Below are positions 6,101 through 30,907 of a stretch of 64,000 nucleotides of DNA, one piece after another. Positions within the stretch are counted from its first letter, which is position 1. Each line of letters begins with the position of its first letter. Under the pieces are notes generated by a model, which worked only from the letters and a program-made list of their open reading frames with translations, was not told the origin of the DNA and did not search any database. Made by a program: the position numbers and the translations under genes. The stretch comes from Flaccisagitta enflata (lineage: Eukaryota), in the NCBI GenBank assembly GCA_965153355.1, contig OZ231126.1:39184001-39248000 (forward strand). The letters are read 5' to 3'.

Positions 6101-6783
6101 TGTCATCAATTGCGCCGTATTTTGTTATCCTCTTGTCCATCTACAGGAAATCTCGCAAATTTCGTTATTTCGGGTGTCGCTCCAGGACTCCTCTTCCTCA
6201 TCATCCTCCTCCTCTCACGACTCCTCGACTTCTCTCCTCCTCATCCTCGACTTCTCTCTTCCTATGGACTCTTTTCTGGAGAGAACTTTATCAGGATTCT
6301 TCGTCTTCAATCAAGAATAAATGACTCATTTAAAGTTCGACTAAAGATCACGCAAAGATCATTTTTAGATTTAAAGACTCATTGCCTCGCCATTGCTATG
6401 ATATATTGTGCATATCCTTGTTTTAGATTTCTCTTTTTCCCCCAGTGCAAGCGAGAAAGCTTCCTCTGTATATCGTTTCTATAGGACATTAATGTGGTTA
6501 TCTCGGACTTCTGCTGTCATTCCCCCCCTTCCGGAAATCATTCATCCCTGACTCCTCAGGTAGCGAGCCTTGTCAATGATGTGGTCTGGCCCACTTTTCC
6601 TTTTTGGCTCATCCTAATATCCGCCCCCCCCTCTCCCTTTTCTCATTTATCATAGAACTTACAGATCCCTTCATTCTCCAATTCGCGTATTCGTTCTAGC
6701 GGGATTCTTAAGACGGAGTTACTCAGCGATCATCAGGGCATCTAGCTAGCTAGTGAACTGTTCATACGTCACGGACTCGCACA
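6101..6783 (+). repeat. 5' LTR
   Basis: TGTCATCAATT...GGACTCGCACA; matches 17325-18007 except three substitutions seen by eye (6109, 6263, 6549). Confidence 0.97.
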
Positions 6784-6806
6784 ATCTGTAAGTTCTGACA
6801 GTTCAC

Positions 6807-6823
6807 TGGCTCCCTTCGGTGAA
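6807..6823 (+). promoter_or_regulatory. Candidate primer-binding site (imperfect tRNA-Asp-like)
   Basis: TGGCTCCCTTCGGTGAA resembles the complement of a eukaryotic tRNA-Asp 3' end (TGGCTCCCCGTCGGGGAA, from memory). It lies 23 nt downstream of the LTR, which is atypical. Confidence 0.4.
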
Positions 6824-7062
6824 AGCAAGCGAACAACACCCGCCTCCCCTTCCTCTTCACCCTTCCGGTCACGACGAAAGCTCAAGAACATTCTCCTCCT
6901 CATCTTCCTCATCACTTCTCCCTCCTCCTCATCCTCCCAATTACGGTGAAAGCTCAAGAACGTTCTCCCCTTCCTCATCTTCCATTACGTCATTCTTCCT
7001 CCTCATCATTCTAACACGGTAAAAGACAAAGAAACTCTTCCTCTTCCTCATCATCCATCACG

Positions 7063-9924
7063 ATGGCAGCAAAGGCCCGCGCAGAAAAAGCCAAAATTCT
7101 GGAAGATACTTTGAGAAAGATGCCCGACTTCAACGCCGTGATCGTGGCAGCGGACGCCGGAGCTATCGGCGGAAGCGGCGCCTCGGTAAACACGGCGATG
7201 ACGTCGGACTTCCAAACGGAAAGTGACGAGAGATCTAGAGAAGCGAAGGCAACGGCACAAACATTGGGACTGCTCGCGCGCTTCTTCGCTCTGCGACATG
7301 ACGATGTATTGAAAGAGTTCGCCGGCGTCGACGATCATGACGCACATCAGGCATTTCTCTACATTGACGACATGCGCGTCGCGCTCGTGGGAAAAATGTG
7401 GCTTTTCCACGAAATGATTACGAAAAAACTATTTCCCGCCAACACGAGAGAGGACATTCACGGACGAAAATCGGCTGGAAACCACATCAACGTCATCTTA
7501 AAAGACTTCCTCCATACGCGTCGCGCATGCCTTTCACAAGAAACCTACGACGACCCGGACTACGCGCCAAAACCGCCAACAAAAACTGACTTTGTACAAA
7601 ACTCCGCCAGAAAAGGAAGTGTATCGGACAGAGCATTGGCGCTTGCTAACTCCGCCAAGGACTTCATCGGCGAGGTCACATCGCCGAGAAAAGCGAAATC
7701 ACTCGCCAACGATAAGTTTACGGGAAAGAAAAATGATAAAAAAACGGCGTCGCCGGCGCCCCCCGGAACATCGGGGGAAACCGCGGCGCCATCGGTCAGT
7801 GACGTCAAAGTGGATAAGAAAAAACTCACGCCTAAGAATACAGAAGGTGATAAAAAAGAACAAGACCCGGCGACGGAAGACCCAAACGACGCCGACGACG
7901 CCGCCACGAAAAAGTCAGGCGCGCCTGAAGAAGACAGCGCCGAAACTGACGACGAAGCGGAACAAAAGCGCCGCCAAGCAGGAAACGCAAAAGCGGCCGG
8001 CTGGGTCGCTGATCAACAAGAACAACAAATCGCGCAACAAAACAATCAATACCATGACGCCGTCCAAAGCATCATCAACACGAGCGAGACCCACGCGATA
8101 GCAATTGAAAAAGACAATGAACATTATGAAGAAGTCCTCAAAAGAGAAAAAGAAGAAACAGAACGCGTGAAAGAAGAATTGAGAAACTTGGAAGCAATCC
8201 ACGAATTACAAAGAAAAAAACGACGAGAACAAGAAAAGAAAAAAGACGAACTAAAACAACAACAACAACAGCAGACGAACAAAGCCATACAAACGAACAA
8301 AAGACAATTAACAGCTCAAAAGAGACAAGCAGAGATAATTCAAAGCGTGGAATTGGTTCAAGCGGAAAAACAAGACGCGAGTGAAAAACTAGAAAAACTA
8401 AAGCGCCAGATTCAGAACAATTTGGACGAATTAACAGAAGAAGAAGACGAGGTACAGTTCATCGACGCCGTATTCTCGTCGACGCAAAATGACGCGCCGA
8501 CGCCAAGCGAGAGCGCCGCGACAACAACCGGAAGTGGAAAGAAAAAACGCCGATCCCCACACAAAAAGAGCCCAAATGCAGCGAGATATCCTCCTCCCAA
8601 TCTACCTCCCCTGGGCGATAACTTCCCAAAAGACGTCAGACGAGTGGGCGTCGAGTACAAACCGGCGCCAAAACCGGCGCCCAAACCGGCGCCGAAAATG
8701 CAGAACGGCGACGCCGCGGGAGGTCATGCATCCCCCGCGACTGACGCCAGACGAACAACTAATACGATTTCTTCAGCAACCGCGGCGCCGCAGCACGACT
8801 TCTCTAAATTCATTCGCACGCTAGAATTGGACACCGTCAGAAGAAGCATCGTTGGGGTCCGACCAGAGACACTATTTAAACAATACGATTCGAAAAAAAA
8901 GGGCGAATACAACTCCTTAATGAACCAGTTCGACTCGGCTTTCGGCTTCATCCCTGGAATAACCGGCAACGAAAAAGTCACGGAATTATCGGGACATTGG
9001 TTTGCTGGAGCAGCAAAAAAGGCGTTGAAGGCAGCAAGACCGACAGCGGACGATCCGAATGGAGACATCGCCTACGCAAAAGTGAGGTCACATCTAGACT
9101 CAATTTATGGCCAAGACATTGATTCCGCCGCCGACGCCCTCGCCAGACTGAAGGAAGGCGGAGTCGTCGCCAAAGACAGCCTCACTGCGCATCAAGACCT
9201 CTACCTCAACATGCTGGAGGCGGAAAGCTCGGCGTTATCAGCGTCGTCGACGGAGTTATTCGACAGAACGTCCACCCTGATCGAGATCATGTCGGCGAGA
9301 TTACCGCACCAAATGGAGAAATTCTTCGAAACGTATGAAGAAGGAGAAGGATTCCAGAAGCTTCTCGAATTCATCCATCGGCGAATTACAATCCTAAAAA
9401 CCATTCAGGTGACGACTCAAAAACCACAAACAATAAAAATTCACGCGACGGAGACAAAAGAAATTAAAAACCAACAATACGGCCCCAATACATTCGCCCA
9501 ACAAGTACAAAATTCCCCAAAGAAGGAAGAAAAGAAGGTTAGATGCACTCACTGCCAAGGCCTTCATCAGACGACAACATGCAACCGTCTTCTCATCCTA
9601 TCGCTGCCCGAAAGAATTGAAATCGCCAATAAAGCCCGAATGTGTTATCATTGCATGGAGACGACGCACAACGCTAAAGACTGCCCGGAGAAAAAAGAGG
9701 TCTCATGTTCAATGTGCAATAAAAAAGGACACATCGCCATGTTTCACGGCAGGACCTGGCTTAACCAAGCCAATGGACAGACGGACCGCTTCCGACGAGG
9801 CGGCAATGACACCAACCTAAAAATCGTCGATCCTCCGAAAACGGCGCCGCTCAACGCCGGCGCAGCGGGAAACAACGCCGCCGCGAAACAAACCGACGAG
9901 GAAGTGGAAAACCCCCCCATCTGA
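7063..9924 (+). CDS. gag: BEL/Pao Gag (953 aa)
   Basis: Long coiled-coil region and three C-terminal Zn knuckles (CTHCQGLHQTTTC, CYHCMETTHNAKDC, CSMCNKKGHIAMFH), typical of BEL/Pao. Confidence 0.93.
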   Translation: MAAKARAEKAKILEDTLRKMPDFNAVIVAADAGAIGGSGASVNTAMTSDFQTESDERSREAKATAQTLGLLARFFALRHDDVLKEFAGVDDHDAHQAFLYIDDMRVALVGKMWLFHEMITKKLFPANTREDIHGRKSAGNHINVILKDFLHTRRACLSQETYDDPDYAPKPPTKTDFVQNSARKGSVSDRALALANSAKDFIGEVTSPRKAKSLANDKFTGKKNDKKTASPAPPGTSGETAAPSVSDVKVDKKKLTPKNTEGDKKEQDPATEDPNDADDAATKKSGAPEEDSAETDDEAEQKRRQAGNAKAAGWVADQQEQQIAQQNNQYHDAVQSIINTSETHAIAIEKDNEHYEEVLKREKEETERVKEELRNLEAIHELQRKKRREQEKKKDELKQQQQQQTNKAIQTNKRQLTAQKRQAEIIQSVELVQAEKQDASEKLEKLKRQIQNNLDELTEEEDEVQFIDAVFSSTQNDAPTPSESAATTTGSGKKKRRSPHKKSPNAARYPPPNLPPLGDNFPKDVRRVGVEYKPAPKPAPKPAPKMQNGDAAGGHASPATDARRTTNTISSATAAPQHDFSKFIRTLELDTVRRSIVGVRPETLFKQYDSKKKGEYNSLMNQFDSAFGFIPGITGNEKVTELSGHWFAGAAKKALKAARPTADDPNGDIAYAKVRSHLDSIYGQDIDSAADALARLKEGGVVAKDSLTAHQDLYLNMLEAESSALSASSTELFDRTSTLIEIMSARLPHQMEKFFETYEEGEGFQKLLEFIHRRITILKTIQVTTQKPQTIKIHATETKEIKNQQYGPNTFAQQVQNSPKKEEKKVRCTHCQGLHQTTTCNRLLILSLPERIEIANKARMCYHCMETTHNAKDCPEKKEVSCSMCNKKGHIAMFHGRTWLNQANGQTDRFRRGGNDTNLKIVDPPKTAPLNAGAAGNNAAAKQTDEEVENPPI

Positions 9925-10149
9925 CTAGGAGCGACCGGCGTGGAGAATTTCATCGCGCCGGATGATGATGTGATTCGCCCGATTGTACTCGTGCGGATTC
10001 GCAACGTCGAGACCGGCGCTTCGGAAATGATTTACGCCATGTTAGATACATGTGCAGATAAGGATGTAATCTCGGAAAACATAGTAAAGCGACTCAACCT
10101 TACATACACGACAAAGACAATGACAGTACAAACAGTTGAAACAAAATGA
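9925..10149 (+). CDS. pol: Pol N-terminus: aspartic protease, in frame with gag after the TGA
   Basis: IYAMLDTCADKDVIS retropepsin-like active-site motif; same frame as gag; ends at TGA 10147 because of a 1-nt frame change. Confidence 0.85.
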   Translation, partial: LGATGVENFIAPDDDVIRPIVLVRIRNVETGASEMIYAMLDTCADKDVISENIVKRLNLTYTTKTMTVQTVETK

Positions 10150-13100
10150 CACAAAAACGCAGACTTGCAAATTTTCAATTGGAATCCATTCACTCATCGT
10201 ACAAAACTAACGTCGGACAAGCCCTAGTGGCTAAACTATGGAGCAGCGACAATGACATTCCACCAGCAAAACGTGATTTGACTAAATTCAACCATCTCGA
10301 CGGCATTAAATTCGACGACGAGGACGTGGAGGTCGGTATGATCATCAGTGTTGCGCACGCCGATACATGGACTCAAGGACCGTTTATTCGCGGCCCAAAA
10401 AAATCCCCCACCGCAATGTGGACGGAGTGGGGATACACGATCTTTGGAGTCGGCTGCCAACGCGACCATCGCGACGTTTCCGTGAACCTCCTCGCCGTTG
10501 ACGACACCAACGTTAAATACGACTACGAACGCATCTTTTATCACGACTTCCCCCAAGTGACGGCTAAAGAAATGGGAGACTCCCACGCGAATCGCAAAGC
10601 AATTCTAATGTTACAAGAAGGCATTCGATTCGACGAAGATAAACAGAAATACGTGTCGGTCCTACCGTGGTTGAAGAATAGAGAAGAAGCGGCAGCCATC
10701 CTCAACGTTCTCGATTCCGAAGGAATGGCGAAGCGCAGACTAATCTCAATGATGCCACGATTTGAACACGACCCTGTCTTTAAAGAAAGAGTCTTCTCGG
10801 AAATGGACAAATTCTTCACGAAAGGATACGCTACTCCCATCCCAAACAGCGAAATGGACCCCAGCATCCCAAGATGGTATCTTCCCATGCATCCTGTGGA
10901 TAAGCATGGGAAGATTAGAATGTGCCATGACGCCAGAGCAAACGTCAACGGAATATGCCTCAATGACCTTCTCCTCGGCGGCCCTAACATCATCAATCCG
11001 CTCGTCGATATACTTGTCAAATTTCGGGAGAACCCCATCGCCTTCATGACCGATATTTGTGGTTTTTTCCACAACGTCCTCGTCGACGAGAAGGATCGCG
11101 AAGTCTTCCGCTACTTATGGTTCGCCGACACCAAGATGGCGGAAGTGTGGAGATACCAATTTTTCTCCCACATCTTCGGCGCCGGATCGTCATCCATCGT
11201 GACCGGATTCGTCCTCCGCTATCACGCTGACAAGATTAGGCCCAAATTCCCCGACAACGTCTATCAAACGATCAGAAATAAATTTTATGTCGATGATGGC
11301 GCCGGCGGTGGACGAACAGTTGCATCTGCACTGGAACTGAAGCAGAATCTGAAGGAGGCGATGCGTCTTGGCGGTTTCCAGCTCGAAAAATGGCAGTCAA
11401 ACGCCCCCGAGCTCGTGGACGGCGAGGAAGGACACGCAATAAAAGCCATCTCAGATTCTGCCGAAGAGAACGTCACAAAGGTATTGGGCGTCTCGTGGGA
11501 CTCGAAAAACGACAACTTCGTCTTCCAATTTGACAAAGAGAAGATCAACAAAGCCGTCAATACCCCTCATCAACTTGTGTCAGTTCAAGCGTCAATATAC
11601 GACCCCCTCGGCTTCCTCTCTCCGTTCTGCCTCCTGGGCCGCAAACTGCTACAACAAGCGACTTCCGGTTCACCTGGATGGGATTCTAAACTCAAACCTG
11701 TCGTCAAGGAGGAATTCGCCGCATGGGCGAGATCCATCATCCTCCTCATCAACATCACGATCCCCAGATGCTTCACAAAGGCAGACCTCGGCGACCCGAT
11801 TGTAATCGAATGCCACATTTTCGTGGATGCAGCACCCGGAGGATTTGGCGCCGTCGTGTACAGACTGGAGAGATATTCCAACGGCGAAGTTTTCATCACC
11901 ATCGTCACATCAAGAAGCCACGTCGTCCCCTTGAATTCAGCAAAAGCATCTCACCACAATTCCATCCCGCGCCTCGAATTAGTTGCAGCAGAAAAGGGCG
12001 TGCAGCTGCACAATTTCGTCAACAGCGCCGTGGAGATCCCATTTCAAAGGACAGTGATGTGGTCAGACAGTGAAGTGGTGTTGAAACAAATCTTTGACGA
12101 AGCAAAAGTTCACGGACCTTTCATCAACAATCGCCTATCAAAAATCTACGCAGTTACAAAGCCGGACGATTGGAGATACGTCGAAGGCCCGAGGAATCCG
12201 GCTGATCACTGTTCAAGAGGAATACGCGCGGATGAGTCCGAAAAATGGGCAACATTCCATCGCGGACCCGACTTCCTCTATCAAGACGAAAGCCAATGGC
12301 CGGTCACAACTGTACCTCGACACAAAAAGCCGACGACAATGGTCCTCGCCACGCATGTAATCCCAACTCCACCGGAAGTTCCTCTAGATGGATGCGGATA
12401 CGCCAAACTGGTCGTCGACATCGACGGCTGGTATAAAAAAGTCATGAGAGTAGCATCTCTACGGAAAATCATCGCCTTCTGGAGGAAGTATCGTCGTGGT
12501 CAAGCCCAACAACCAAATCAATGGACGGCCACGTCAACTGGAAACCTGCGTATCACCATCGCAAAAAAGAAGCCCAAACAGCCCGTCAACTTAACCATCT
12601 CAATACTCGAGTTTCGAGAAGCGGAGAACCTAATTTTCGCCGCGACTCAGAAGGTCAATTTCCCAAAGGAATGGCAGAATTTGGTGGACCGCGACATCTT
12701 TCATCCCAATTCGAACAAGGAAATGACAATGAAAAACTCCCCCCTCATCACTCACAACCCCTTCGTCGACGAGTGCGGCATCATCCGCGTCGGCAGCCGA
12801 TTGGTCAACTCTACAATTAAAGAGGAAGCAAAATTCCCAATCATCCTCCCACGCAAAGATGAAAACGTGCGCGCGTATATTCGCTTCATCCATGATTATG
12901 AACTCCATGCGGGCGCAAAACACGTCCTCAACTCATCGCGTCAACGCGTTTGGATCATCCATGGGCTACAGGAAGTGACTTCCGTCATCCGAAAATGCAT
13001 CTCATGCCAAAAAGCGTTCAAAAAGCCAATGACGCAAAAAATGGCAACGCTCCCATCCTTCCGCGTGAACCCCCTTCCTCCATACGAGTATACAGGACTT

Positions 13101-14024
13101 GATCTCTTCGGCCCAATCGGCGTAAAAATCAATAAAAGAGCGTCGTGGAAAGTATGGGTGGTGGTGTTCACCTGTATGTCAACGCGATCGGTCCACGCAG
13201 AGATCGTCATGAAACAGGACGCGAGTTCTCTCATCTTGGCAATCTGCAGATTCGCAGCGCGGAACCCCAATGTCCGCCATTTCATTTCTGATCGCGGATC
13301 TAACATGACGGCAGCGGACAAAATCCTCAAACAACAACTCGCTAATTACAACGAATCTGCGGCTCAACAACTGAAAAGAAAAGGCATCCAATGGGACTTT
13401 ATTCCCACGGCTACTCCCCATTACGGCGGCGTCTGGGAGAGGGTCGTCGGACTCTTCAAAAAGCATATAAAAGCCATGGCAATCGGCGAGTCAATTCACT
13501 ACGACGTCTTCCAAACAGCCATCGTCGAAATTGAAGCGGCTTTGAACCGCCGCCCCCTAACGGCGGTACCAGCAGAATCCAACAGCTGCGAAGCCATCAC
13601 GCCTCTTTCAATTCTTAACCCGACTGCGCGATCTCACTCCGACGTCGTCGTCATTCCTGACGCATCATCAACGGAAGTCGACCGTCTCAAATCCGCGTGG
13701 ACTAATGCCCAGGCTCTAGTCAATCGTTTCTGGAACGCCTGGAAGAGAGACTACATATCGCTTCTCCATGGACGAGAAAAATGGCAACGATCCTCAAAAA
13801 ATCTCGAAATCGACGACCTCGTCCTACTGGTGGACGAAAAAGTATCGCGCGGACATTGGAAACTTGGTCGCGTGGTAAAAGTGGAAATGGACAACGGTCA
13901 TGTCAGAAAGGCATACCTGAGAACAGCCGACAAGAAAGTGGTTCTACGAGATAGGACAAAGCTCGTGCACTTGGAGATGGACCAAGAAGAGGATTCGGAC
14001 CAACAGCTCATCTCTGTGGCATGA
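10146..14024 (+). CDS. pol: BEL/Pao Pol: protease C-terminus, reverse transcriptase, RNase H, integrase
   Basis: RT motifs WYLPMHPV, LNDLLLGGP and FYVDDG; RNase H motifs HIFVDAA and SIPRLEL; integrase HHCC (H...HAG...CISC), GLDLFGP, SDRGSN and GGVWERVV; C-terminal FWNAWKRDYI...WKLGRV. Confidence 0.96.
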   Translation: MTQKRRLANFQLESIHSSYKTNVGQALVAKLWSSDNDIPPAKRDLTKFNHLDGIKFDDEDVEVGMIISVAHADTWTQGPFIRGPKKSPTAMWTEWGYTIFGVGCQRDHRDVSVNLLAVDDTNVKYDYERIFYHDFPQVTAKEMGDSHANRKAILMLQEGIRFDEDKQKYVSVLPWLKNREEAAAILNVLDSEGMAKRRLISMMPRFEHDPVFKERVFSEMDKFFTKGYATPIPNSEMDPSIPRWYLPMHPVDKHGKIRMCHDARANVNGICLNDLLLGGPNIINPLVDILVKFRENPIAFMTDICGFFHNVLVDEKDREVFRYLWFADTKMAEVWRYQFFSHIFGAGSSSIVTGFVLRYHADKIRPKFPDNVYQTIRNKFYVDDGAGGGRTVASALELKQNLKEAMRLGGFQLEKWQSNAPELVDGEEGHAIKAISDSAEENVTKVLGVSWDSKNDNFVFQFDKEKINKAVNTPHQLVSVQASIYDPLGFLSPFCLLGRKLLQQATSGSPGWDSKLKPVVKEEFAAWARSIILLINITIPRCFTKADLGDPIVIECHIFVDAAPGGFGAVVYRLERYSNGEVFITIVTSRSHVVPLNSAKASHHNSIPRLELVAAEKGVQLHNFVNSAVEIPFQRTVMWSDSEVVLKQIFDEAKVHGPFINNRLSKIYAVTKPDDWRYVEGPRNPADHCSRGIRADESEKWATFHRGPDFLYQDESQWPVTTVPRHKKPTTMVLATHVIPTPPEVPLDGCGYAKLVVDIDGWYKKVMRVASLRKIIAFWRKYRRGQAQQPNQWTATSTGNLRITIAKKKPKQPVNLTISILEFREAENLIFAATQKVNFPKEWQNLVDRDIFHPNSNKEMTMKNSPLITHNPFVDECGIIRVGSRLVNSTIKEEAKFPIILPRKDENVRAYIRFIHDYELHAGAKHVLNSSRQRVWIIHGLQEVTSVIRKCISCQKAFKKPMTQKMATLPSFRVNPLPPYEYTGLDLFGPIGVKINKRASWKVWVVVFTCMSTRSVHAEIVMKQDASSLILAICRFAARNPNVRHFISDRGSNMTAADKILKQQLANYNESAAQQLKRKGIQWDFIPTATPHYGGVWERVVGLFKKHIKAMAIGESIHYDVFQTAIVEIEAALNRRPLTAVPAESNSCEAITPLSILNPTARSHSDVVVIPDASSTEVDRLKSAWTNAQALVNRFWNAWKRDYISLLHGREKWQRSSKNLEIDDLVLLVDEKVSRGHWKLGRVVKVEMDNGHVRKAYLRTADKKVVLRDRTKLVHLEMDQEEDSDQQLISVA

Positions 14025-14498
14025 GCAGAAAAAATATCAAAAATTCCCGGGCAATCGTCTGGGACTAATTGGTATTGCTATGATCATCATATCATCTTCT
14101 TGATCCGTTATTTTCTCTCTTAATCGCTTATATTTCTTATTTTCCCCGCCTAAAAGCTAAACTCGAGAAATATCAGGATTCCCGGGCAGTTGTCTGGGGC
14201 TATTGATGTTACTACTCTCTCTATTTTTGTTTTCTCTTTATCATCGTTCATAATATTAACAATCACTCCATTCTTGCTATTACCTTTCTTCACTTCTTCA
14301 CATCTCATGACCGGCTTCTTCCTCATCCTCGACCTCTCTACATCATCATCATCTGATCTACACATGCATATGATTATTATCTTCATATGATTCCTTGCTT
14401 GCTTCTCATCTTTAAAATTCATCCCAATCACGTCGTTACATTATACATGAACTCATGCGTTCCTCCCCATTCTTAGATCAAGAGAAAGATAATACGAA

Positions 14499-16871
14499 AT
14501 GGCGAATTTAAGCGAGACGAGCGGGCGTGGAATCGCCAAGCTGGGGACGGAAGCCGGATCACCGGCGGAAACTCCCGGCGCCGGCGAAGAAACGCCCTCC
14601 TCCTCCTCATCATTCTCATCATCAACCCCCCTTCCTCCCGGCGCGAAGAAAAAGCGCCCCCACGTCGACGCCGCCGTAGATCAAAATGCGGAAGATCTCA
14701 TCGGTCCTCTCGACTACGACGACACCGACGACCAATCTCACCACCATCCCGAGTCCATGGACACATCGGAAGCTGAGGGCACGTTTAACTCCGCCCTCCT
14801 CAACCTCTCCTCATCTCTTCCTCCTCCCTCATTCCGATGCCAGTGCGTCCCCACCTCCCTCCCCGATGACGTCAACCATGAACCCAACGTGAAATATCCC
14901 GAGAACATTCACGAACAAATTTTTCAGACTAAAACCGGCACCCCTTACTGGATCAAGCCAGGCAGGGGCATCGTTAATCACGAGGACCTCACCGTCAACC
15001 CTCCCCGCCCAGCCTTCGTTTCCTTCTCCGCCGGCGTCCAAGTCCAGATTGACGACAACGAGTGTCTGGCAAAAATCCATGCGATTGAAAACGGATCGAA
15101 GAAGGAAAAGAAAAAGTTAGCCAGAGCAGCCGCCAAAGCTAGCAGTGCGGACCCCGGAACATCGGGGGAAGCTGCTGCTGCAGAGGCGACTGCCGCGGCG
15201 CATCCCCTCCTCCCATCTTCTCGCGATGCCGCTCCTCCTCCTCCTCCTCCGCCTCCTCCTCCCGCAACTCCCGATGACGGCCTTCGGCTTCCCAACACCT
15301 CACCATACCACCACTCCATCTTCATCCCCTCCTCACTTAAGATGGACAACACGGGCCGCCTCTCTCTCGCCGCCACCATTCCTCTTCTTCCTCCTCTTCC
15401 CCAACCAGAAAACAGAGCCGACGTCAAGAGAGACTTCATCGCGTCTAAGAATCTTCTCGACCACAATAAAATATTACTAGAGCAGAAAGAGGAACAATGG
15501 ATGAAACTCGGTGGCCTGGATCCCGCCCAAAAACGATTCCTCGCGGCGGGCCAGGCCCATCACGATATTTGGACGGACATTTTTACAAAATCGTTTAAAG
15601 AACGTTTCAGCCAATGTCGTCCTGCCTCTCAAATTAACCCCGCCGATCCTCCCCTCGAGAAGTCACGCTGCTTCTTTAGGAAGTATCTCGCGGGAATCAA
15701 CGAAGATCCCAACCTAATTGAAGTATTCAATCCCATCGCACCAGCGCAGACCACGCCTCCTCCTCCTCCTCCTCCTCCTCCTTCACCTCCTCGCCATCAA
15801 TCTTCCTCGGCTCGTATTCATCCTCCTCCTCCTCCTCAGCCACGCACATCATCCTCCACTCCAGCCCGTCCACGTCCACCACCACTAATGGGCCCACCAT
15901 CTCATCCTCCTCGCCAGCAACAACAGCAGTCAAAGGACGCGAAGGGCAATGCCGGATCATCGGCGGCGCCTATACGTCCCGCGACAGCCTCCACATCACC
16001 TCGTCAACATCCTCAACATCCTCCTCAACATCCTCCATCCAGCGTCGTCAACATACCACCTCCACAGAAACGCGCAAGAAGCCCCATCCGCCACCCCGAC
16101 CAAAGACGTCCATCATCACCATCTCCAGCACGACGTCAATCTCACACACCATCACTGCATCGTCCACCCACCACTTCGTCATCTTCATCATCTTCACGGC
16201 CTCGTCAATCCCCCGGCCCTTCCTCTTCTGATAGGCCAGCAGGCCCCGGCCGTCGGTCGGGGTCGTCCTCTGGCCCGTCAAGGGAGAGGGAGGAAAAGGA
16301 GAAAGAAGAGGAAAAGAAGAAAATCGACGAGGTTTTCAAGCGCCTCGCCCTTCTCGAGCTTGAAAATCAGGAATTGAAGCAGACTGTGACGTCGTTGAGA
16401 AAAGACGCGACGGCACAAAAACAACAACAAAAAAGACAAGAACAACAACAACAAAGGGACTTCAACCTGCAACAACAACAACTACAACAACATCGATCCG
16501 ACATTAACATCGTCGCTCATCGCACCCTCCAAACCACGGCGGCGGTCGGTAACGTGGGACTCGTCGTCGAATCGGCACGACGCCCTATATCGGAGATGTG
16601 GCAACGCCATCAACAACAGACGTCGCCATCTCCATCCCGCCATTCTTCCCACGATCGCCCGATGAAATTACCGGCGATAGACTTTACGTCATCTCCTTCC
16701 AACGACGAGATGGATTTCGCCTCCGAAGAGACGATTGACGATTGGGCGGCGGCCGCAAGTAATTCGCAGCCAGCCGACAACGACGACGTCTACACCCTCA
16801 GCCCGGCGCCAAAAGGAGGAACCTATCGTGGAGGCGCCACCGCTTCCGGAAGGAAATCTCGTCCTCACTAG
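14499..16871 (+). CDS. Accessory ORF3 of the BEL element (790 aa; Pro/Ser/Gln-rich with C-terminal coiled coil; function unknown)
   Basis: Uninterrupted 790-codon ORF between pol and the 3' LTR, starting GAAATGG; preceded by a polypyrimidine-TAG acceptor at 14475-14476; no signal peptide or TM segment visible. Confidence 0.85.
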   Translation: MANLSETSGRGIAKLGTEAGSPAETPGAGEETPSSSSSFSSSTPLPPGAKKKRPHVDAAVDQNAEDLIGPLDYDDTDDQSHHHPESMDTSEAEGTFNSALLNLSSSLPPPSFRCQCVPTSLPDDVNHEPNVKYPENIHEQIFQTKTGTPYWIKPGRGIVNHEDLTVNPPRPAFVSFSAGVQVQIDDNECLAKIHAIENGSKKEKKKLARAAAKASSADPGTSGEAAAAEATAAAHPLLPSSRDAAPPPPPPPPPPATPDDGLRLPNTSPYHHSIFIPSSLKMDNTGRLSLAATIPLLPPLPQPENRADVKRDFIASKNLLDHNKILLEQKEEQWMKLGGLDPAQKRFLAAGQAHHDIWTDIFTKSFKERFSQCRPASQINPADPPLEKSRCFFRKYLAGINEDPNLIEVFNPIAPAQTTPPPPPPPPPSPPRHQSSSARIHPPPPPQPRTSSSTPARPRPPPLMGPPSHPPRQQQQQSKDAKGNAGSSAAPIRPATASTSPRQHPQHPPQHPPSSVVNIPPPQKRARSPIRHPDQRRPSSPSPARRQSHTPSLHRPPTTSSSSSSSRPRQSPGPSSSDRPAGPGRRSGSSSGPSREREEKEKEEEKKKIDEVFKRLALLELENQELKQTVTSLRKDATAQKQQQKRQEQQQQRDFNLQQQQLQQHRSDINIVAHRTLQTTAAVGNVGLVVESARRPISEMWQRHQQQTSPSPSRHSSHDRPMKLPAIDFTSSPSNDEMDFASEETIDDWAAAASNSQPADNDDVYTLSPAPKGGTYRGGATASGRKSRPH

Positions 16872-17324
16872 GAGGCGATCTCATCGGTGGAGACGTATAT
16901 CGGGTCGATGTCGTCAAGATCGTGGACGGACGCCGGATCACCGGCGGAAAACCCACGGTAAATGCGGCGACAAAACCCGACGCGTAGCTCCCACCATTAT
17001 CGTCCTCCTCTTCATCTCGATCCTCCTCGCTGCGAAGCCGAATTCAACGCCGGAGCATCGGCGTGAATCTCGGCAAAAGTAACGGCAAACCCATTTTCTC
17101 ATTATTCTCGTCCTCCTCCTCATCTTCTGTACATAGTTCTTGTTTGTCTATTCTGTCGTGTTTATTCTTTTCTGTTCATCGTGTTCCCCCTCCCCCCAGT
17201 CCACATCATATTAACTTTCCTCAAAATTTTTTTTTTACTCGCTTGCACAGTAGTCATGTTTTCCTCTAGTTTTCCCCCCCCTTCGAGAAATCAACTTATC
17301 TGTCATATTGACAGATCCTGGGGC

Positions 17325-18007
17325 TGTCATCAGTTGCGCCGTATTTTGTTATCCTCTTGTCCATCTACAGGAAATCTCGCAAATTTCGTTATTTCGGGTG
17401 TCGCTCCAGGACTCCTCTTCCTCATCATCCTCCTCCTCTCACGACTCCTCGACTTCTCTCCTCCTCATCCTCGACTTCTCTCTTCCAATGGACTCTTTTC
17501 TGGAGAGAACTTTATCAGGATTCTTCGTCTTCAATCAAGAATAAATGACTCATTTAAAGTTCGACTAAAGATCACGCAAAGATCATTTTTAGATTTAAAG
17601 ACTCATTGCCTCGCCATTGCTATGATATATTGTGCATATCCTTGTTTTAGATTTCTCTTTTTCCCCCAGTGCAAGCGAGAAAGCTTCCTCTGTATATCGT
17701 TTCTATAGGACATTAATGTGGTTATCTCGGACTTCTGCTGTCATTCCCCCCCTTCCGGAAATCATTCATCCCCGACTCCTCAGGTAGCGAGCCTTGTCAA
17801 TGATGTGGTCTGGCCCACTTTTCCTTTTTGGCTCATCCTAATATCCGCCCCCCCCTCTCCCTTTTCTCATTTATCATAGAACTTACAGATCCCTTCATTC
17901 TCCAATTCGCGTATTCGTTCTAGCGGGATTCTTAAGACGGAGTTACTCAGCGATCATCAGGGCATCTAGCTAGCTAGTGAACTGTTCATACGTCACGGAC
18001 TCGCACA
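17325..18007 (+). repeat. 3' LTR
   Basis: Near-identical to 6101-6783; followed by the TSD GTGAG. Confidence 0.97.
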
Positions 18008-18142
18008 GTGAGAGCCTTGATATTAGTCCCTTTGCATTTATCAAAGGGGGCAAAATAAACGCCAACTTTTGCTACGTGAAGCACCCAAGTTGAAGAGACA
18101 GCGTCTTAAAATGCGTAGACACCTTTCTGAATGAGTTCTTCT

Positions 18143-18365
18143 TAGTTGTGGACACGCAACTCTATAAGAGGCTTTGACCGTCTGTTGTTCCGTCCGTCGG
18201 TCCGTCCATTGGTCCGTCCGTTGGTCTGTGAGCTTGAGTTGAAAAGTGGGAAAACAAGTGTTTAAAAGTTTTTTGAGTATGTGTTTGGGGAGTGGGGTAT
18301 GGATTGGGGTTGGACGCCCCTGCCCACCCGTCTGCAACGATATTGTGACCCCGCTTCACTTGTTT
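18143..18365 (+). mobile_element. Helentron/DINE-1-like non-autonomous repeat family A (representative copy)
   Basis: Recurrent TTAGTTGYGGRCACGCAACTCTATAAGAGG, then (GTCC/GTCG)n microsatellite, then GCCCCTGCCCACCCGTC...TGACCCCGC. Related copies near 3523, 22810, 26080-26240(-), 26505-26680, 34310-34480(-), 37595-37790(-), 41055, 45230-45370(-), 45788-46005, 58262-58365(-) and 63890(-). The family assignment is inferred from architecture. Confidence 0.65.
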
Positions 18366-18956
18366 TGTTAAATACGCCATGTATGTACCTAACGTGCGTA
18401 GAGTTGATAGTTTCTTTTTTTCCACCCTTTCATTCTACTAGATGCCGGTGTGTTACCAAAACTCGAAACAATATTTGAGTCTCTTTCAGTTTTTGACTTG
18501 GAGGCCTACCATCTTTTCCTGACTTGGTTTTGGATATTTACGGCACCCCCACAAGTCCAGGAAATAGAATGGCATTAGGTGATTTGCGCCATAAAAATAG
18601 ATCTGTTTGAAACATGTTTACTTAGTAGAAAATCTTAGCCGCTTATACATTTAGGTTCTATCATCTACTGACTATGTAGTTCAAGTCTCCGTCTTGCATT
18701 GTCATGGCTGACGGCCCTGAATTTTGCATTTTACGTATGAGGGTATTTTTACTCCATTTTCCTAGATCTCAGCAAATTGCACTTTTGAGTTCATTTAGTA
18801 CTCTGAGGTTTATACCTTGTCCTCTATATGAATGTCCTGCCCTGAATCTAAACCAAGGGGATAAATTGGGTCTATCTACATTGATATTTGGTAAGAAACA
18901 AATGATTTCGGGCCTAAAATGATTCTATTTCCTGATATCATATAAATGATGGGACT

Positions 18957-20570
18957 GTGACGGGGTGCTTGAGTCAGTTCTGGACAGTTTGCCGTCATAT
19001 CGGGACTCAAGATTATTTGCCACCTGTTTGGAAATGCGTTATCGTTGTTTCGTCGGCTTTTCTGCTAGGCCCTACGACAATCCATTTTTACAGCATAATT
19101 GTCATTTTATCATCAAAGCTAAATCTGCATGAAGCTTCGTTTTCTGAGTGGAAGATGAAACAGAATTTAGAAGCCGCATTATTGTTTGCCTCTCGAGCCA
19201 AACTGGGAGAAATATTTTTCGAAAGTTTTCCACAATTTCTCACTCAAGGGATGATGACCAGTGGCAAGGGTGAGAGGGGCGTGAGAGAGCTGACCTATTG
19301 GCAAAAAATGTCTGTACTGACCAGCGCTGCGACCATTGCTCTGGGGATCTCCAACTTTGGTGTCCGGATCTCAGGCGTATATCTTTCAAGAAAACACAAA
19401 AAGATGACATCTCATTTGGTGTTAGCCATCTTTTCCTTGTCGGAAGTAGCTTTTTGCGGGGGGCTTTGTCGTTTCTCTTTTGCATTGAAAGTTGGTGGCA
19501 CAAGTGCTTTGGCAATGTTGATTCCTTTCATTGCCTTGTCATCGGCGTTATCAATGGCACCAATCATCTGTTATCTATTTCAGTGGACGCATGGTGAAGT
19601 TTTCTTTCTGACACCCAAACTTTGTCTTTGGGCAATAGTGGCGGGTATATTCTTCTTTACTCAGGCAACAGTTACAGAACCCTTACAGGACCTGACGCAT
19701 AATAATTCTTTCGTCACTTTTGTAGTCACAATGACGTTGACATCCATAATCAATTTTACATTGGGGTTTTTCATTCACAAGCAAAGGACCGACTTTCATG
19801 TTTACCAATGGGTGGACGCAATTCTTAAAAAGATGGTTGACACTCTGACCGAGCCGTGTACATCTGAAACTGAATGCCGTGCCATTCACACTGAATCTGA
19901 TCAAGTGGAAGAATCAACTGAAGATTCTTCGAATAAAGAAGTGCAGATAAAATCACAAAAAACATCGAAGGTAGAAACTGGAATATCACATAAAACCTCA
20001 CATCCTAGTATGGATAACCTGAGAAGCAGAGCACGAGAAAGATTTTGTAGCATGACAGTAGTCAGATTGGCTACGCCATTGATCATCATTTTTCTCCTTT
20101 CCTTTGCGGTCATCGCTCTGTTTTTCTATCCTCTCGATGTACCACAGGAAGGTTACTGCGTGGAGTTTTACTGTGATTGTATCAGTAAAAGAAGTGATTT
20201 GCAAGGGTTCCCAGTAGTATCTGCCTGCAATGATTCTCTAAAAGGTTCCATCTGTGTGAAGAATAGGACTCCCTTGGAGTTAGTACAAATTAGCAAGGTA
20301 ATTGCGAAACAAATCCGATATGAAGAACTGCTTCTAGTTGGAATTTCAGACTATAATGGAAAGTTTGACATGGAGAATATCAAGAGCTTACAAAAACCAA
20401 TTTTGCAACCGATATGTACGGGCGAGGAAAGTAACCTCATTTTTTGTAAGCATTACGGCTTGAATGTAAGACTTAAGGAAGAATGCTATGAAGGAACTCA
20501 CCGACTTTTCGTCAGCATTATAAAAAATCATATAGATTTTCCAGGCTACCACTCTTTTTTCATGATCTAG
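18957..20570 (+). CDS. XK-related membrane domain plus Cys-rich extracellular region (part of the disrupted gene)
   Basis: AFLLGPTTIHF and AKLGEIFFESFPQFLTQ...SVLTSAATI XK-family motifs; about 7 hydrophobic helices; aligns by eye with the paralog at 28171-30907. Confidence 0.8.
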   Translation: MTGCLSQFWTVCRHIGTQDYLPPVWKCVIVVSSAFLLGPTTIHFYSIIVILSSKLNLHEASFSEWKMKQNLEAALLFASRAKLGEIFFESFPQFLTQGMMTSGKGERGVRELTYWQKMSVLTSAATIALGISNFGVRISGVYLSRKHKKMTSHLVLAIFSLSEVAFCGGLCRFSFALKVGGTSALAMLIPFIALSSALSMAPIICYLFQWTHGEVFFLTPKLCLWAIVAGIFFFTQATVTEPLQDLTHNNSFVTFVVTMTLTSIINFTLGFFIHKQRTDFHVYQWVDAILKKMVDTLTEPCTSETECRAIHTESDQVEESTEDSSNKEVQIKSQKTSKVETGISHKTSHPSMDNLRSRARERFCSMTVVRLATPLIIIFLLSFAVIALFFYPLDVPQEGYCVEFYCDCISKRSDLQGFPVVSACNDSLKGSICVKNRTPLELVQISKVIAKQIRYEELLLVGISDYNGKFDMENIKSLQKPILQPICTGEESNLIFCKHYGLNVRLKEECYEGTHRLFVSIIKNHIDFPGYHSFFMI

Positions 20571-20919
20571 GCTGATAGGTTTTCTGCCTGTGAAAAGAAT
20601 TGTCACGATATAGCCCTGGGAGAAATGTTTGTGTCAAGGCTCGTCGGTGAAAACGAAGGCGCTCTTCTTATTAAACATCTTCCCAAGAGAAATACGGAGC
20701 AAGAAAGCATATGGCTTGTGGATGGAGGATATCTAACGTCTACGGAGAAAGGAAACAAAATTGTCCTTCCTCAAAATGTGCGCGATGAAATCTTACCATC
20801 AATTTGCGTGGTTTTTCGGAAATGTAAGAGCAATCCATGCCAAAACAGAGGGACCTGTTTCGATAATGCAAATTCTTTCCTGTGTAATTGTACTTCAAGT
20901 TGGACTGGAAAGTTTTGTG
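20571..20919 (+). CDS. Degenerate C-type-lectin-like segment and EGF-like domain (in frame after the TAG)
   Basis: FSACEKNC...LV...ESIWL...PSICV followed by the canonical 6-Cys [41 protein letters not shown] donor at 20920. Confidence 0.75.
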
Positions 20920-21156
20920 GTAAGTTTAGGCTGTGATTAACATAGTACATTTCATTTCCTAGTTTGTTCCAATGTTCAGCCAAAAAGACGACTCTCGACG
21001 TAGTTAAAAAGTAGTAGATGAGGGGTTTGTTTGCTGCTATGTTTTTTTTCTGTTTTTTTTTTTTCTCTCTCTGCATGTCTGCTGCTCTGTTTTTTCTGCA
21101 TGTCTGTTTTTCTGCATGTCTGTTTTTCTATTTGTCTCTCTCGGTCATACTTTCTT

Positions 21157-21250
<94 letters not shown>

Positions 21251-21265
21251 TCCATTTCCTCTCAG

Positions 21266-22293
21266 AGTTGATCGCATCCCCCATTCCGCTGCGACTTACC
21301 AAAGCTAGTTCAGAGACAACAGGTGGCGTTGGAATGGTCGTGGAATCGATCGGAGCGAAGATTTTGCTGTGGGGATCTAGAAAAAAATCCCCCAACGTCA
21401 TCCGGATGTACGACGTGAATAATGAAACATGGGCGGAAAAGGAAGCGGGAGGCGAAATACATCCAGGTTACGCGAATGCCGCGAGTGTCATCGTTGGAGA
21501 AGAGATTTACATGTTCGGCGGTTTCCGAGATGAACAGAGAGGGAAACAAATAGAAACAAACTGCATCTCAAAAGTCTCGACAAAAACTGGCGAATTCCAG
21601 CGTATCAAAATCAACGGAGTTTCTCCTTTTCCCCGCTTTAAGGCAGTTGCCTGGAGTCACGAGGGTGATCTATGTTTCGGATTTGGTCACAGTGATGGGA
21701 GGCAAAAGATTTCGGGAGAGAGTTACATCGAAGAGAACAGAAGATGGACCCGAAAACCCGGCTTGGGTTTCACAAATGAAATCCTGCGATTTGACAAAAG
21801 ACAAAACTCTTTTGCCTCGCTCATCACGAATGGATCTTCGCCAAAACCCCGCATTGGATTTGGCTTTGCCAAATTGGATGGAAAAATATACGTTCACGCT
21901 GGACAAGGAGAACACTATAATGGGTTGAAAGACTTCTTTCGAATGGATTTAAAAATCAGTGAATGGACTTCACTGAAGGCCCGCGGTCTTCCATACAGCC
22001 TTCAATATCACTCCCTGTCGCTGCTCTCTTCGAAGCAATTGATGCTGGTTGGTGGAGAAAAAAGTCCTTGGGAAAAATCAAATCGAGTCATGATTTACAA
22101 TGTACAAAACGGTTCATGGACGGAAGATCAGCTTCTGCCGGACTCAGTCGGCGGGGGTGAAGGCGGTGGATTGGTGTACCACAGAGCCGCAGAAGTGAAA
22201 AACGGAAAGAATGTCACAACAATCATTTGTATGGGAGGAAAAGTGAAAGGCAACAAACTCTCCAAGCACATGCTTCATTTTGACTTACCCTGA
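21266..22293 (+). CDS. Kelch-repeat beta-propeller terminal exon
   Basis: IYMFGGF, PFPRFKAVAW, PKPRIGFGFAKLDGKIYVHAG, YHSLSLLSSKQLMLVGG and IICMGG; the CAG acceptor at 21263-21265 is phase-compatible with the EGF exon. Confidence 0.85.
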
Positions 22294-26823: not shown

Positions 26824-28170
26824 TCTCTCTTCCACTCTCTCTCAACAACAACATGAGGACGCAATGTGACAAAAATGACAAACCCTTTTGTGTTATTGTT
26901 ATAAATTTCGCTAAAGATGATTCCATTCGCCTCGTATGTATCTTTAGATTTAAGATCAACACATGTTTAAATATTTTCGACAGAGAAAAAATGGCAAAAT
27001 TGCATGAAAAGCATTCTTTTAGTTGGCCTTTTGTGATGAAATTTTGACAATAGCAGACTGATTCTTTATTGCTTGTAATGCTTTGACAAAAATCATTAAG
27101 CAGGTGTTACTTGCTTATGTATCACGACCTATCCCCATGTCTTCTACAACTTCCAATCTGGAGCTAGCACTCTTAGTCTGACGGTACATCGCACCGTCGG
27201 TCGACCACTCTGTCTAGGTCGCTTTTGGCAATGATAAGGATCTTGGCTTTTTCGGTGGTATTTGATCATTACCTCTAAATTTTGAACGGATAGATTTTTA
27301 CAAGAGGTAACGAACCGACGTACGAATCTACAAACAGACCGATAGACTAAACAGCTTATGATCATGAAGACGTGATGATGCATCTATGAAATGTCATGCC
27401 CAGATAAAGCGATATCTGTAGAATGTGCCCGTATCTGTTTCTTTAAAATATGTCGAAGCTTTTTGATAACATTCAGTCTTCAGTCCAATATTACATTTTA
27501 TATTCTGCGGGCTCACTAATCTTCATCGAATATCGGGACGAGCTAAAAACTACATGAAATCGAGAGATAGACCAATGAGAGTGCTCAGTTACACTTACTG
27601 CTTACACTTACAGACCAACAAATGTACTCTGTAACACTTACAGCCTTCAAACAATCTATGATATGACGTGTTTTTTTTTTTCTGAAATAAAAATCTTGTC
27701 AATTTGAAAACAATTTGTAAAAAAATTTTCATTTCTTTTGCTTTGTATTGCACTGGTGCTAACTTACAAAAGTGGTTTTCGCATTGGGTGGTGAATCGAA
27801 AATTTAATTTTGATATTTTATAACAAGTGGGTAGAACATAATCCCTTCCTTTACGAGTGATACAATTTTGCGAGCTATTCCATGGCCATACCGATGGTGA
27901 TGTTTTATTTGCATTATGTTATTAAATATTAAGTAATAATGATAATAGAAACATGTGGAGGAGTCCTAAGGGCCTCTTGAACCTTCACTGACTAGTTGAT
28001 ATGTGCTCAACTTCTAGTTTTCCATTAAAAGAATTGTAGAAACGCCCATTTAGGGTCTTGCCAACCAATAATAGTCAAGGGCAAAAGAATGCTACCTGTG
28101 CAACTAAAGTTCGTCTCAATAATCTATCCCATTGCGAAAACCCCTCAATAAAAATTGGTTAAAAGCCAGA

Positions 28171-29988
28171 ATGAACATCGAAAAACTTTTCACGATTTCG
28201 TTATTCTGCGTCAGCGCCGCGTTTACGCTCGTCGACATCGGAAGTGACTCTTACCTCGCCTTCAAGTATTGGAACAACACCAAATATCGAAGTTTTCGAC
28301 ATTGCACGGAAGATCCATTTACCAGAGCCAATATGACAACCAAGGAACGCAATTTCACGAGAGAGTTTTTCAGCTTGACGGGCGAAAATTACGGCGAAAA
28401 TGGTCCGTTGGTGCAGATCATCGACAAAATTGAAAAAAAGATGAATGAATGTGACCAAACATGGAATAAAACTGACAATGTTACCGCCGACATCTTTAAA
28501 GACGAAGGAGATTGTAGTCTCTACGTTTCTAACGAGCTTGTGGACAATCCGACACACGAGGAGGTGGAGTGGGCGAGTAAGGTGTTCCATTTGAGGCATG
28601 AATTTCCTTGGAAGTGGTGGAGCCGCACCAAAAAAGTCCTTCAATATTGCGCAAATTGGATGAACCGTTCCATCCCGATTAATCCCACCCGGATCCAAAC
28701 TCAAACGGACGCGGGAGCGCTATTTAGCCTCGATTTAAATTTGCATTTTGCGATTCTGACGACGGGCTGGATCGCCGCTGGGGGATTGTTTCAATTCTTT
28801 ATCATCTTTCACTTGTTCCGCCGACAGGACTTCCGTCTTGGCATTCTGCCAAAATCTGTTCAAATCATACTACTCTTAGCATCGCCAATTTTGCTTGGAC
28901 CTGTCATCGTTTACATGTATGGCATCATTTTTCTATTGTCTGGGAAAAAAGATCAACCATTTCAACAGGGAGTCAAAAGGTAACAGAATGCATAAAGGTA
29001 ACGTGATGAAACATAGATAATACTCCAGAAAGCGTGATTGCAAAAAAATCCTTAACTCACGTTTGTATATCAATTACACCGAGTAAAGAACACCCACTTC
29101 CGCAGATAGATGTTGGATTTGGCTTGATAGTTTAGCTTACCCCGTGTTCAATCTCAAAGTGGGAAAAGTAAAAAGCTTACATTCCTAAACGCAACTAGTC
29201 AGTGATTTCAAATCATTTTTCTCTTGTAGTATTATGTTTGACGTTTTTTGTATAAAAATTTCATTGGTCTAGCCTTAATAGTTTGTCCACAACATCAATT
29301 TTAAGAAAAACAAGTGTATGAAGTTTGAGCTAAAAAACTCTTCTTTTAATCATGATAGTTTTTCTCAAAATTGCTCTAATTTCTAAACGGTTTGAGCTAC
29401 AAACACCAGATTGGTCTCAAATGAAGTATAATTTGGAAATGTTTACATCTGAGACCAATCTGGCACCTTTTATCAAGCCGTTTGAGAATTACAGGCAGAA
29501 TTTTGAAAAACGGTGTTGACAAAATCATGAGTTTTTGAGCCTCAACTGTAAATACTTGTTTTACTTCAAATTGATGTTGTGGATAAACTATTTAAGCTAG
29601 ACCAATAAAATTTGTACACAATAAACGTCAATATAATGCTAAAAGAGAAAAATGGTTTGAAATCACAGACCAAGTGCGTTTAGAAATGTAAGCTTTTTAC
29701 TTTTCCCACTTTGAGATTGAACACCCTGTATGTTTTGAAATACAACTTCTCTCCAGATTAAGCCTGCTCTCGCCATTGAATTGACAAATTGTAGGGGTGA
29801 TGGATATGTCACAATTTGTACTCATAGGTTAAACGAAATTGTGGCCGCTCTAAAGATTGGCGAAGTGGTTTTTGAGTCTGCGCCTCAACTTGGAACACAA
29901 TGGATCAGCATTCGATATCTAACGTTGTAAAATTTTTCTAATGTTGTCTTGATTAGCTATATCTCTATTTAGTATTAAAGAGAGAGAA

Positions 29989-30052
<64 letters not shown>

Positions 30053-30907
30053 CAAAACAAACATAATTTCTTCTTTAGGAACTACGCCGTTGACGATGTT
30101 ATGCCATTGATTCAACGTTTTTCCATCACAACATCCACGATCACGATCGTCGTCTCCATCGTGAGTTTCGTCGCTCGGAATCGCCAAAAACAATGGATCG
30201 ACCCCAAACATCCATCATTGGCTTCACTGGCGCCCATCGCCTGCATGGTTACCACCGCCATCCTCGGCGCGTCGATGCAATGGAGATTTATCTACAGACA
30301 CAACGACGCCAATGGCTTTTGGCAAATACCACATATATTGATATTTTCCGCTCTCAATACCTCGGCCGCCTTTTTTACTACTTTTGTCTTGTGTCAACGA
30401 TACTCGGCCATTCCGTTTTTACGCGGTAGATGTTGGCGAGTGATTCGCACCACGATTCATTTCCTGTTACACGCCTCCAGTTTCGTATTCTTAGTTACAT
30501 GCGGTACGGCGTTTATGGATACCAAACCCGAACGTGGATTTACCTGTCGATCGGTGATGGGGAGAAAAATTTCGCACCGAAATGTCATTTACATGTTTTT
30601 TACGATCATTTTTTGCTTCGGCACCCATTTTATACTCGGTCTGCTTATATTCTCTGGTTGGAGTCTCGCCAGTCTTGTCAGTCCTGTACTCTCTGCCGCT
30701 GTCATTTGCCTGAAAAAAGTAGCCAGCCTGTGTTGTTACTGTCGATCAGATTGGCGAGATTCCATCGTCAAACTACTCGATGAGCTGATGCTATCTGGAG
30801 AGGCGAGAGAGGCAGAGGAGAAAAGGGAGGCGTTGGAAATGGAGAAGTTAAAGGAGGGGTGGAGAGAAAGGCGGTTCAAAAACGCTAGAGCGAGGGATAG
30901 GCGTTGA
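28171..30907 (+). CDS. XK-related (Xkr) membrane protein, 3 exons: 28171-28979, 29828-29926, 30079-30907
   Basis: TM1 motif FTLVDIGSDSYLAFKYW; large Cys- and N-glycosylation-site-rich first loop; exon 2 encodes ALKIGEVVFESAPQLGTQW; both introns are phase 2 with GT-AG ends and join into one open frame of about 578 aa. Confidence 0.88.
29140..29728. mobile_element. Foldback MITE (Tc1/mariner-type ends) in XK intron 1
   Basis: GTGTTCAATCTCAAAGTGGGAAAAGTAAAAAGCTTACAT... is inverted at ...ATGTAAGCTTTTTACTTTTCCCACTTTGAGATTGAACACCCTG|TA; the arms extend almost to the centre. Confidence 0.85.

Follow-up and report, generated by a model that had tools for sequence, protein, structure and literature searches.

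Can one polypeptide carry both a scramblase-like membrane core of the XK family and an extracellular arm for recognition? This question is raised by a gene in the window studied here, the whole 64,000-nucleotide stretch of Flaccisagitta enflata contig OZ231126.1 (positions 39,184,001 to 39,248,000, forward strand), which comes from a 794-Mb assembly in 9 contigs (GCA_965153355.1, labelled G000) and whose DNA is present in marine metagenome runs too. A sequence-only reading had described, at 18766–22293 of the window, an XK-related protein fused to lectin-like, EGF and Kelch-propeller modules. The gene belongs to a family of about 50 members, each uniting in a single polypeptide an XK-fold core, a variable linker, an additional membrane helix, an SRCR-like domain and a lectin-like domain; one clade swaps terminal phase-1 exons encoding Kelch or EGF plus Kelch. 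That the family couples recognition to scrambling is the interpretation we prefer, tentatively and at somewhat less than even chances.

The main exon occupies 18442–20919 (+ strand) and encodes the XK-fold core (18442–19817, backed by the fold of paralogue L037), a charged linker (19818–20066, of low model confidence and taken as cytosolic from the XKR9 topology), an extra membrane helix LATPLIIIFLLSFAVIALFFYP (20067–20132, presumably N-in/C-out), an SRCR-like domain (20151–20522), a short C-type-lectin-like domain (20550–20819) and an EGF domain in the unchanged frame (20823–20918; Pfam E 4.8e-8). A GT donor after 20919 and an AG acceptor before 21266, both in phase 1, bound a 346-bp intron (20920–21265) with an 86-bp (TC)n tract, and lead into an open terminal Kelch-propeller exon (21266–22293; Pfam E 5e-29) of a type known from NACHT genes. 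The + frame covers 18936–20570 (544 aa) up to a TAG and continues to 20936, and the Kelch frame ends at 22293. The linker with one further helix, the EGF domain, the Kelch exon and its phase-1 junction had all been read correctly from the letters. The exon start had been misplaced: position 18766 falls within a 416-bp miniature inverted-repeat transposable element (MITE), where the frame is full of stops, and it was rejected as a splice acceptor. Nor does the gene begin near there. The first XK helix (FWDLGAD, with D-x3-D) is encoded past an 11.9-kb BEL/Pao element, in a phase 1-1 exon at 5338–5466 (+) that matches a paralogue exon in tblastn at E 1e-7 and whose counterpart was located upstream in 20 of 40 paralogue regions. 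Farther upstream, a putative charged, coiled-coil-like phase 1-1 exon (4922–5146, +; open frame and splice signals, zero Pfam matches) and a putative first coding exon with an ATG and a phase-1 donor (4124–4193, +) are suggested by the nucleotide sequence itself.

The XK identity of the window copy follows from paralogues above the Pfam cut-off and from a fold match, so that the earlier assignment is borne out by the family, while the window copy alone is weak (PF09815, E 0.093, 12.1 bits, under the cut-off of 24.8). This cut-off was passed by L038 (25.1 bits) and P0002 (27.3 bits) and missed by eight of the nine paralogues tested and by the allele P0003. The main exon of L037 was modelled without the first helix (predicted local distance difference test, pLDDT, 75; predicted template modelling score, pTM, 0.50), and its residues 14–315 matched XKR4, XKR8 and XKR9 with Z 13.8, 13.7 and 13.0 (root-mean-square deviation, rmsd, 4.5–5.3; 253–267 residues aligned). 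These were the top three of 48,161 chains, the next helical match having Z 8.4. Foldseek alone was weak for the core (XKR9, E 0.17), and neither the full nor the core profile retrieved an XK chain from the PDB by sequence. As modelled, the core has an XK-related fold. The family resembles XKR4, XKR8, XKR9, CED-8 and XK in fold and in charged residues at lipid-path spacing; identity is only 9–12%, the tail is prolonged by another helix and by an ectodomain of several domains, and its roughly 50 copies compare with the nine XK genes given for humans in the relevant passages of PMC8500837 and PMC8298096.

Scrambling by Xkr8 requires D26, D30, K134, E137, E141 and R183, according to passages of PMC8500837. 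In the family, D-x3-D is present in all 20 first-helix exons found, and [KR]-L-x-E-x3-E-x2-PQ occurs in 39 of the 40 cores, the fortieth keeping E, E and PQ. The spacing of these two motifs equals that of D26/D30 and K134/E137/E141/Q145 as numbered in the same part of PMC8500837, the residues being mapped by spacing and not by superposition. For equivalents of R183 and of the gate residue W45, no residue-level alignment to Xkr8 was obtained; many paralogues have a basic residue after G-x-S.

The extra helix was hydrophobic in all 21 paralogues measured (1.8–2.8 over a 19-residue window), is helical in the L037 model and has zero columns conserved at 90%. Basic residues are slightly more frequent ahead of it (2.9) than behind it (1.7; 21 paralogues). 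The XKR9 chain crosses the membrane in eight helices, and its C-terminus after the last of them is cytosolic (passages of PMC8298096); with a ninth helix, the downstream part would therefore face outward, and an outer position of the SRCR, lectin-like, EGF and Kelch domains is highly likely.

The outer part was assessed on a paralogue ectodomain model (pLDDT 87, pTM 0.87). Its first 138 residues matched SRCR domains (VIA Z 8.5, 8.4 and 8.2 to Pit54, SCARA5 and CD163), and Foldseek supported the same fold, with SCARA5, SCARA1 and MARCO among the matches. No Pfam match came from the corresponding segment of the window. The SRCR fold assigned in the model is backed by sequence: the motif C-x-G-x-E-x-x-L-x-x-C is present, eight of nine weak PDB profile matches (E 0.11–8.2) are SRCR proteins, and the database homologue P0053 passes Pfam SRCR. 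Residues 136–233 matched many lectin-fold chains at a level below the tool's clear one (best Z 5.4, rmsd 3.1, 94 aligned) and contain invariant C, W and C; the lectin-like assignment, again from the model, is the weaker of the two. The two Cys-rich segments had both been called lectin-like, which fits the second; the first is the SRCR fold, overlooked at that time. Unlike Ca2+-dependent C-type lectins, the family does not carry EPN/QPD plus WND motifs, and it consists of XK-fold proteins that stand outside both the calcium lectins and the caspase-activated group. Class A scavenger receptors have a type II topology, and the family is like SCARA1, MARCO, SCARA5 and SCARA4 in that a presumed N-in helix precedes SRCR or lectin-like domains. 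It is unlike them in showing no collagen or coiled-coil stalk between helix and SRCR, in the SRCR and lectin-like tandem, and in having the cytosolic side joined to an XK core.

A search of G000 with the core gave 65 matches, about 50 of them spanning most of the query. Forty paralogue regions were fetched, two of which overlap one inverted pair. An SRCR-like match follows the XK match in 40 of 40, and in at least 31 regions the main frame stays open all the way from the core through the complete lectin-like domain, two of these lacking the core start. A chance neighbourhood was rejected on these counts. The absence of the fusion from any paralog or ortholog had been named as what would refute it, and intact paralogs had been thought possible; they exist, and one, L031, also ends in EGF plus Kelch. 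The picture of an XK protein that arose by exon shuffling in a restricted lineage and carries a receptor-like outer part is therefore supported. The constant unit of the family is XK-helix-SRCR-lectin-like, EGF and Kelch being optional tails of one clade.

Purifying selection acts on the core and on the outer part. The ratio of nonsynonymous to synonymous substitution rates (dN/dS) in nine paralogue pairs was 0.06–0.37 for the core in eight of nine, 0.31–0.96 for the linker, and 0.22–0.56 for the outer part in the seven pairs with usable dS. In the pair L039/L040 the core is nearly identical (dS 0.035) and the outer part has dS 0.46, a difference which suggests ectodomain swapping, the paralogues likely having recombined or undergone conversion. 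When 1.84 billion protein representatives were searched with a profile, 108 matches came up, many of them near-identical to G000 loci; P0019 and P0030 have the same domain order at about 25% identity. Since the best G000 match of P0030 is far from identical, the fusion probably exists in a second species. The protein atlas gave no usable match. As a separate observation, near-identical units on different chromosomes (L111:678-7681, L112 and L113 on C3, C8 and C9, with a similar match on C4) combine a seven-helix frame, labelled by eye as adhesion G-protein-coupled-receptor-like, with a linker-helix-SRCR-lectin-Cys-tail fragment of the family and no XK core; a gene-capturing mobile unit is possible.

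The window gene falls in a clade of ten (bootstrap 100) whose nine paralogues have a splice donor directly after the lectin-like domain; most other paralogues have Cys-rich tails within the main exon. A same-strand Kelch frame lies downstream in seven of the nine, the other two having none in about 15 kb, and phase-1 Kelch acceptors were found in six of six checked. In L031, on another chromosome, EGF has an exon of its own, followed by Kelch, whereas the EGF domain of the window gene sits in the main exon. The splice from EGF to Kelch in the window is deduced from DNA, and the Kelch exon is probably spliced on. The alternative is that the protein ends after EGF, the Kelch frame being another gene or a stranded exon. 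The junction is spanned by no read or protein recovered (RNA mapping over 18020–21140, strict protein searches), read-through of the donor would meet a stop within a few codons, and the exon type is abundant enough (119 matches of 407 candidates in G000) for chance neighbours. Against this stand the recurrence of same-strand Kelch frames with uniform phase-1 acceptors, the same EGF-then-Kelch order in L031, the absence of any Kelch match from the other 31 paralogue regions, and gaps (105 bp in L037, 346 bp in the window) that leave no room for a separate 5' end; together these make a separate Kelch unit very unlikely. Protein searches with the Kelch exon were empty at E 1e-20 (longer proteins) and at E 1e-30 (near-length), which at such strict thresholds is weak evidence.

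In the core tree (36 rows, six near-duplicate or broken rows left out), the branching that decides whether the window gene and L031 are sisters has supports of only 33–64. In the Kelch tree (ten rows, without outgroup), the exons of these two genes cluster with modules from NTPase genes at supports of 100/100 and separately from the other five; the simplest reading is two captures of Kelch exons. The kin on NACHT genes are 34–42% identical, and the ten related Kelch loci fetched comprised six with NACHT, one with another P-loop match and three without a long frame within 8.6 kb. Several of the Kelch loci of G000 (L096–L105) cap NLR-like NACHT genes. The same type of Kelch is the terminal module in both settings; the propeller of the NACHT genes would be cytosolic, after the NTPase, and that of the window gene outside. 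Attractin and MEGF8, to which the architecture had been likened, have a type I topology, CUB and PSI domains, and an EGF domain followed by an extracellular Kelch propeller. The likeness lies in EGF followed by an outer Kelch, with no CUB or PSI Pfam match in the window exons or allele P0003; the window Kelch matches the Pfam ATRN-LZTR1 propeller at E 8e-18, a KLHDC2-type model scoring higher. The parallel holds as analogy only, because the nearest genomic kin of the Kelch exon sit on NACHT genes. At L045 (C5), an F5/8 type C (discoidin) frame at 8894–9373 of the locus, 4.7 kb past the lectin-like domain, is perhaps another swapped tail exon.

The copy in the assembly had been described as damaged, which is true of this haplotype and not of the locus. 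The MITE (18544–18959; CAC...GTG ends, 4-bp duplication ACGG) introduces in-frame stops, and a TAG at 20568–20570 lies inside the lectin-like domain. The MITE is a real insertion: paralogues are uninterrupted where the window copy is split by 420 bp (416-bp MITE plus 4-bp duplication). Of 376 candidates for it in G000, 40 were scored as matches, one of them 99.8% identical, and the target duplication was perfect in seven of eight copies examined. Sample contigs and RNA reads were mapped onto 18020–21140, a stretch ending before the Kelch exon; X1 is possibly the source sample, X2 and X4 belong to one other study, and such contigs show presence, not absence. A contig from X1 joins 18539 to 18960, without the MITE, and extends to 21036; an X4 contig has the identical join. 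At 20567–20568, X1 and X2 carry different letters and no stop, X4 having no coverage there. Three database proteins, 98.3–98.8% identical to the window, have an open stretch of 691 aa that begins with the core and includes EGF. Because of these open contigs and proteins, a dead locus is ruled out: the MITE and TAG are allele-specific, and the assembled haplotype is a null allele of a living locus, though the TAG may be an assembly error. Translation of the fused core is very likely. Adjacent two-base allelic differences from the assembly were seen at 19249-19250, 20081-20082, 20567-20568 and 20886-20887.

How might such a protein work? With the XK tail in the cytosol, the extra helix would place the SRCR, lectin-like, EGF and Kelch domains outside, and the layout as a whole would be that of a type II scavenger receptor tethered to a scramblase. 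The outer arm would bind foreign or damaged surfaces; binding or clustering, together with cleavage or phosphorylation of the linker, would open the retained hydrophilic path, and phosphatidylserine exposed at the contact would mark the cell for engulfment or lysis. The parts of this scheme differ in probability: that the core scrambles lipids is an evenly balanced prediction, a role in innate recognition is plausible at slightly lower odds, and gating by ligand binding is doubtful. Several observations weigh against it. Glycosylation sequons show no excess on the outer side (1.34 per 100 aa, the linker having 1.41; 21 paralogues), and sugar-binding motifs amount to one EPN and zero QPD or WND among 28 paralogues, with none in the window copy. 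The R183 equivalent is unmapped and the other path residues are placed by spacing alone, one paralogue pair has a core dN/dS of 0.66, and the pTM of 0.50 for the full model gives no confident contact between arm and core. For the poly-A run X19, 12.2 million RNA reads were covered, about 6% of the run; zero fell on the coding part, those near 18200 being the only ones and repeat-derived; among the datasets listed as containing the window stretch there is none of RNA. A caspase-like D-x-x-D-[GSA] site occurs in only one of 21 linkers, so that the usual caspase switch seems absent from these sequences, other protease sites being possible; unlike the caspase-activated XKR4, XKR8 and XKR9, the family has no shared caspase-3 site after the last helix.

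The rarity of such sites is also what would be expected if the core did not scramble at all and instead gave a family of adhesion or recognition receptors their multi-pass anchor or signalling scaffold. The divergence of the core, with one of nine paralogues over the Pfam cut-off and no XK chain in the PDB sequence search, agrees with this, as does the lack of strong scrambling by purified XKR9 in liposomes (passage of PMC8298096). Such a role is nevertheless unlikely, given buried acids at the Xkr8 path spacing that are invariant across paralogues about 40% identical, and strong purifying selection on the core. A different account starts from the known heterodimers, Xkr8 with basigin and XK with Kell, a type II protein whose ectodomain is a peptidase. 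The family is like them in pairing an XK protein with a single-pass ectodomain protein and unlike them in having both in one chain, with SRCR and lectin-like domains in place of Ig or peptidase. Helix and ectodomain could then be a built-in substitute for basigin or Kell in trafficking, stability or localisation, with intracellular activation as in Xkr8 or XK-VPS13A. Arrival of Xkr8 at the surface needs basigin or neuroplastin; association of XK with Kell and joint function of Xk with Vps13a are described in passages of PMC8298096 and PMC8851519, respectively. The extra helix, however, has none of the conserved columns of a fixed packing face, and a chaperone role leaves 50 diversified ectodomains with swapped tails unexplained, so that we regard this account as unlikely too. 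Recognition-coupled scrambling is favoured over both, from the retained path residues and the seeming absence of the caspase switch.

XK-like genes are not confined to the subfamily. PF09815 had 117 matches genome-wide in G000 (289 candidates, 119 scored), mostly at non-subfamily loci and many in frames of 800–3092 aa. Of 17 further XK-like loci fetched (L079–L095), two XK domains share one frame in L081, and in L092 an XK domain is accompanied by a ubiquitin C-terminal hydrolase domain; the SRCR/lectin-like unit was seen in none of the 17. The window itself holds a second XK-like gene at 28153–30907 (+), with about three exons, a long Cys-containing first loop, a short tail and no fused ectodomain seen. 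The BEL/Pao long terminal repeat (LTR) retrotransposon in the intron (6101–18007, +; LTRs 6101–6783 and 17325–18007, 99.56% identical to each other; 5-bp duplication GTGAG) is young. Its third frame (14493–16871, +; 792 aa, Pro/Ser-rich), between pol and the 3' LTR, gave no useful Pfam match. A frame at 51701–52159 (−) resembles, by eye, the start of what we take to be a papain-family cysteine protease.

Among the papers listed in the literature searches, which did not extend to the supplementary domain tables of genome papers where it could appear, no report of an XK-ectodomain fusion or of its expansion was found. For the Xkr proteins described in the relevant parts of PMC8500837, PMC8298096 and PMC8851519, the switch is a caspase, a kinase or an intracellular partner, and the ectodomain comes from a separate protein. 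The family could, at its most far-reaching and with a probability we regard as low, represent ligand-gated scramblase immune receptors, in which an Xkr core would be wired to a diversifying SRCR/lectin-like sensor, Kelch exons would be traded with NLR-like genes and phosphatidylserine would be exposed by recognition at the surface itself, without caspases. Standard annotation would hide the subfamily, because Pfam misses most of its domains, in a genome that has more than 100 further XK-like matches, far above the nine human genes, and in which one Kelch module is common to NLR-like and surface genes. The roughly 50 natural XK-ectodomain fusions are ready constructs for testing the gating of an XK core from outside and for learning which residues of the lipid path matter at 10% identity.

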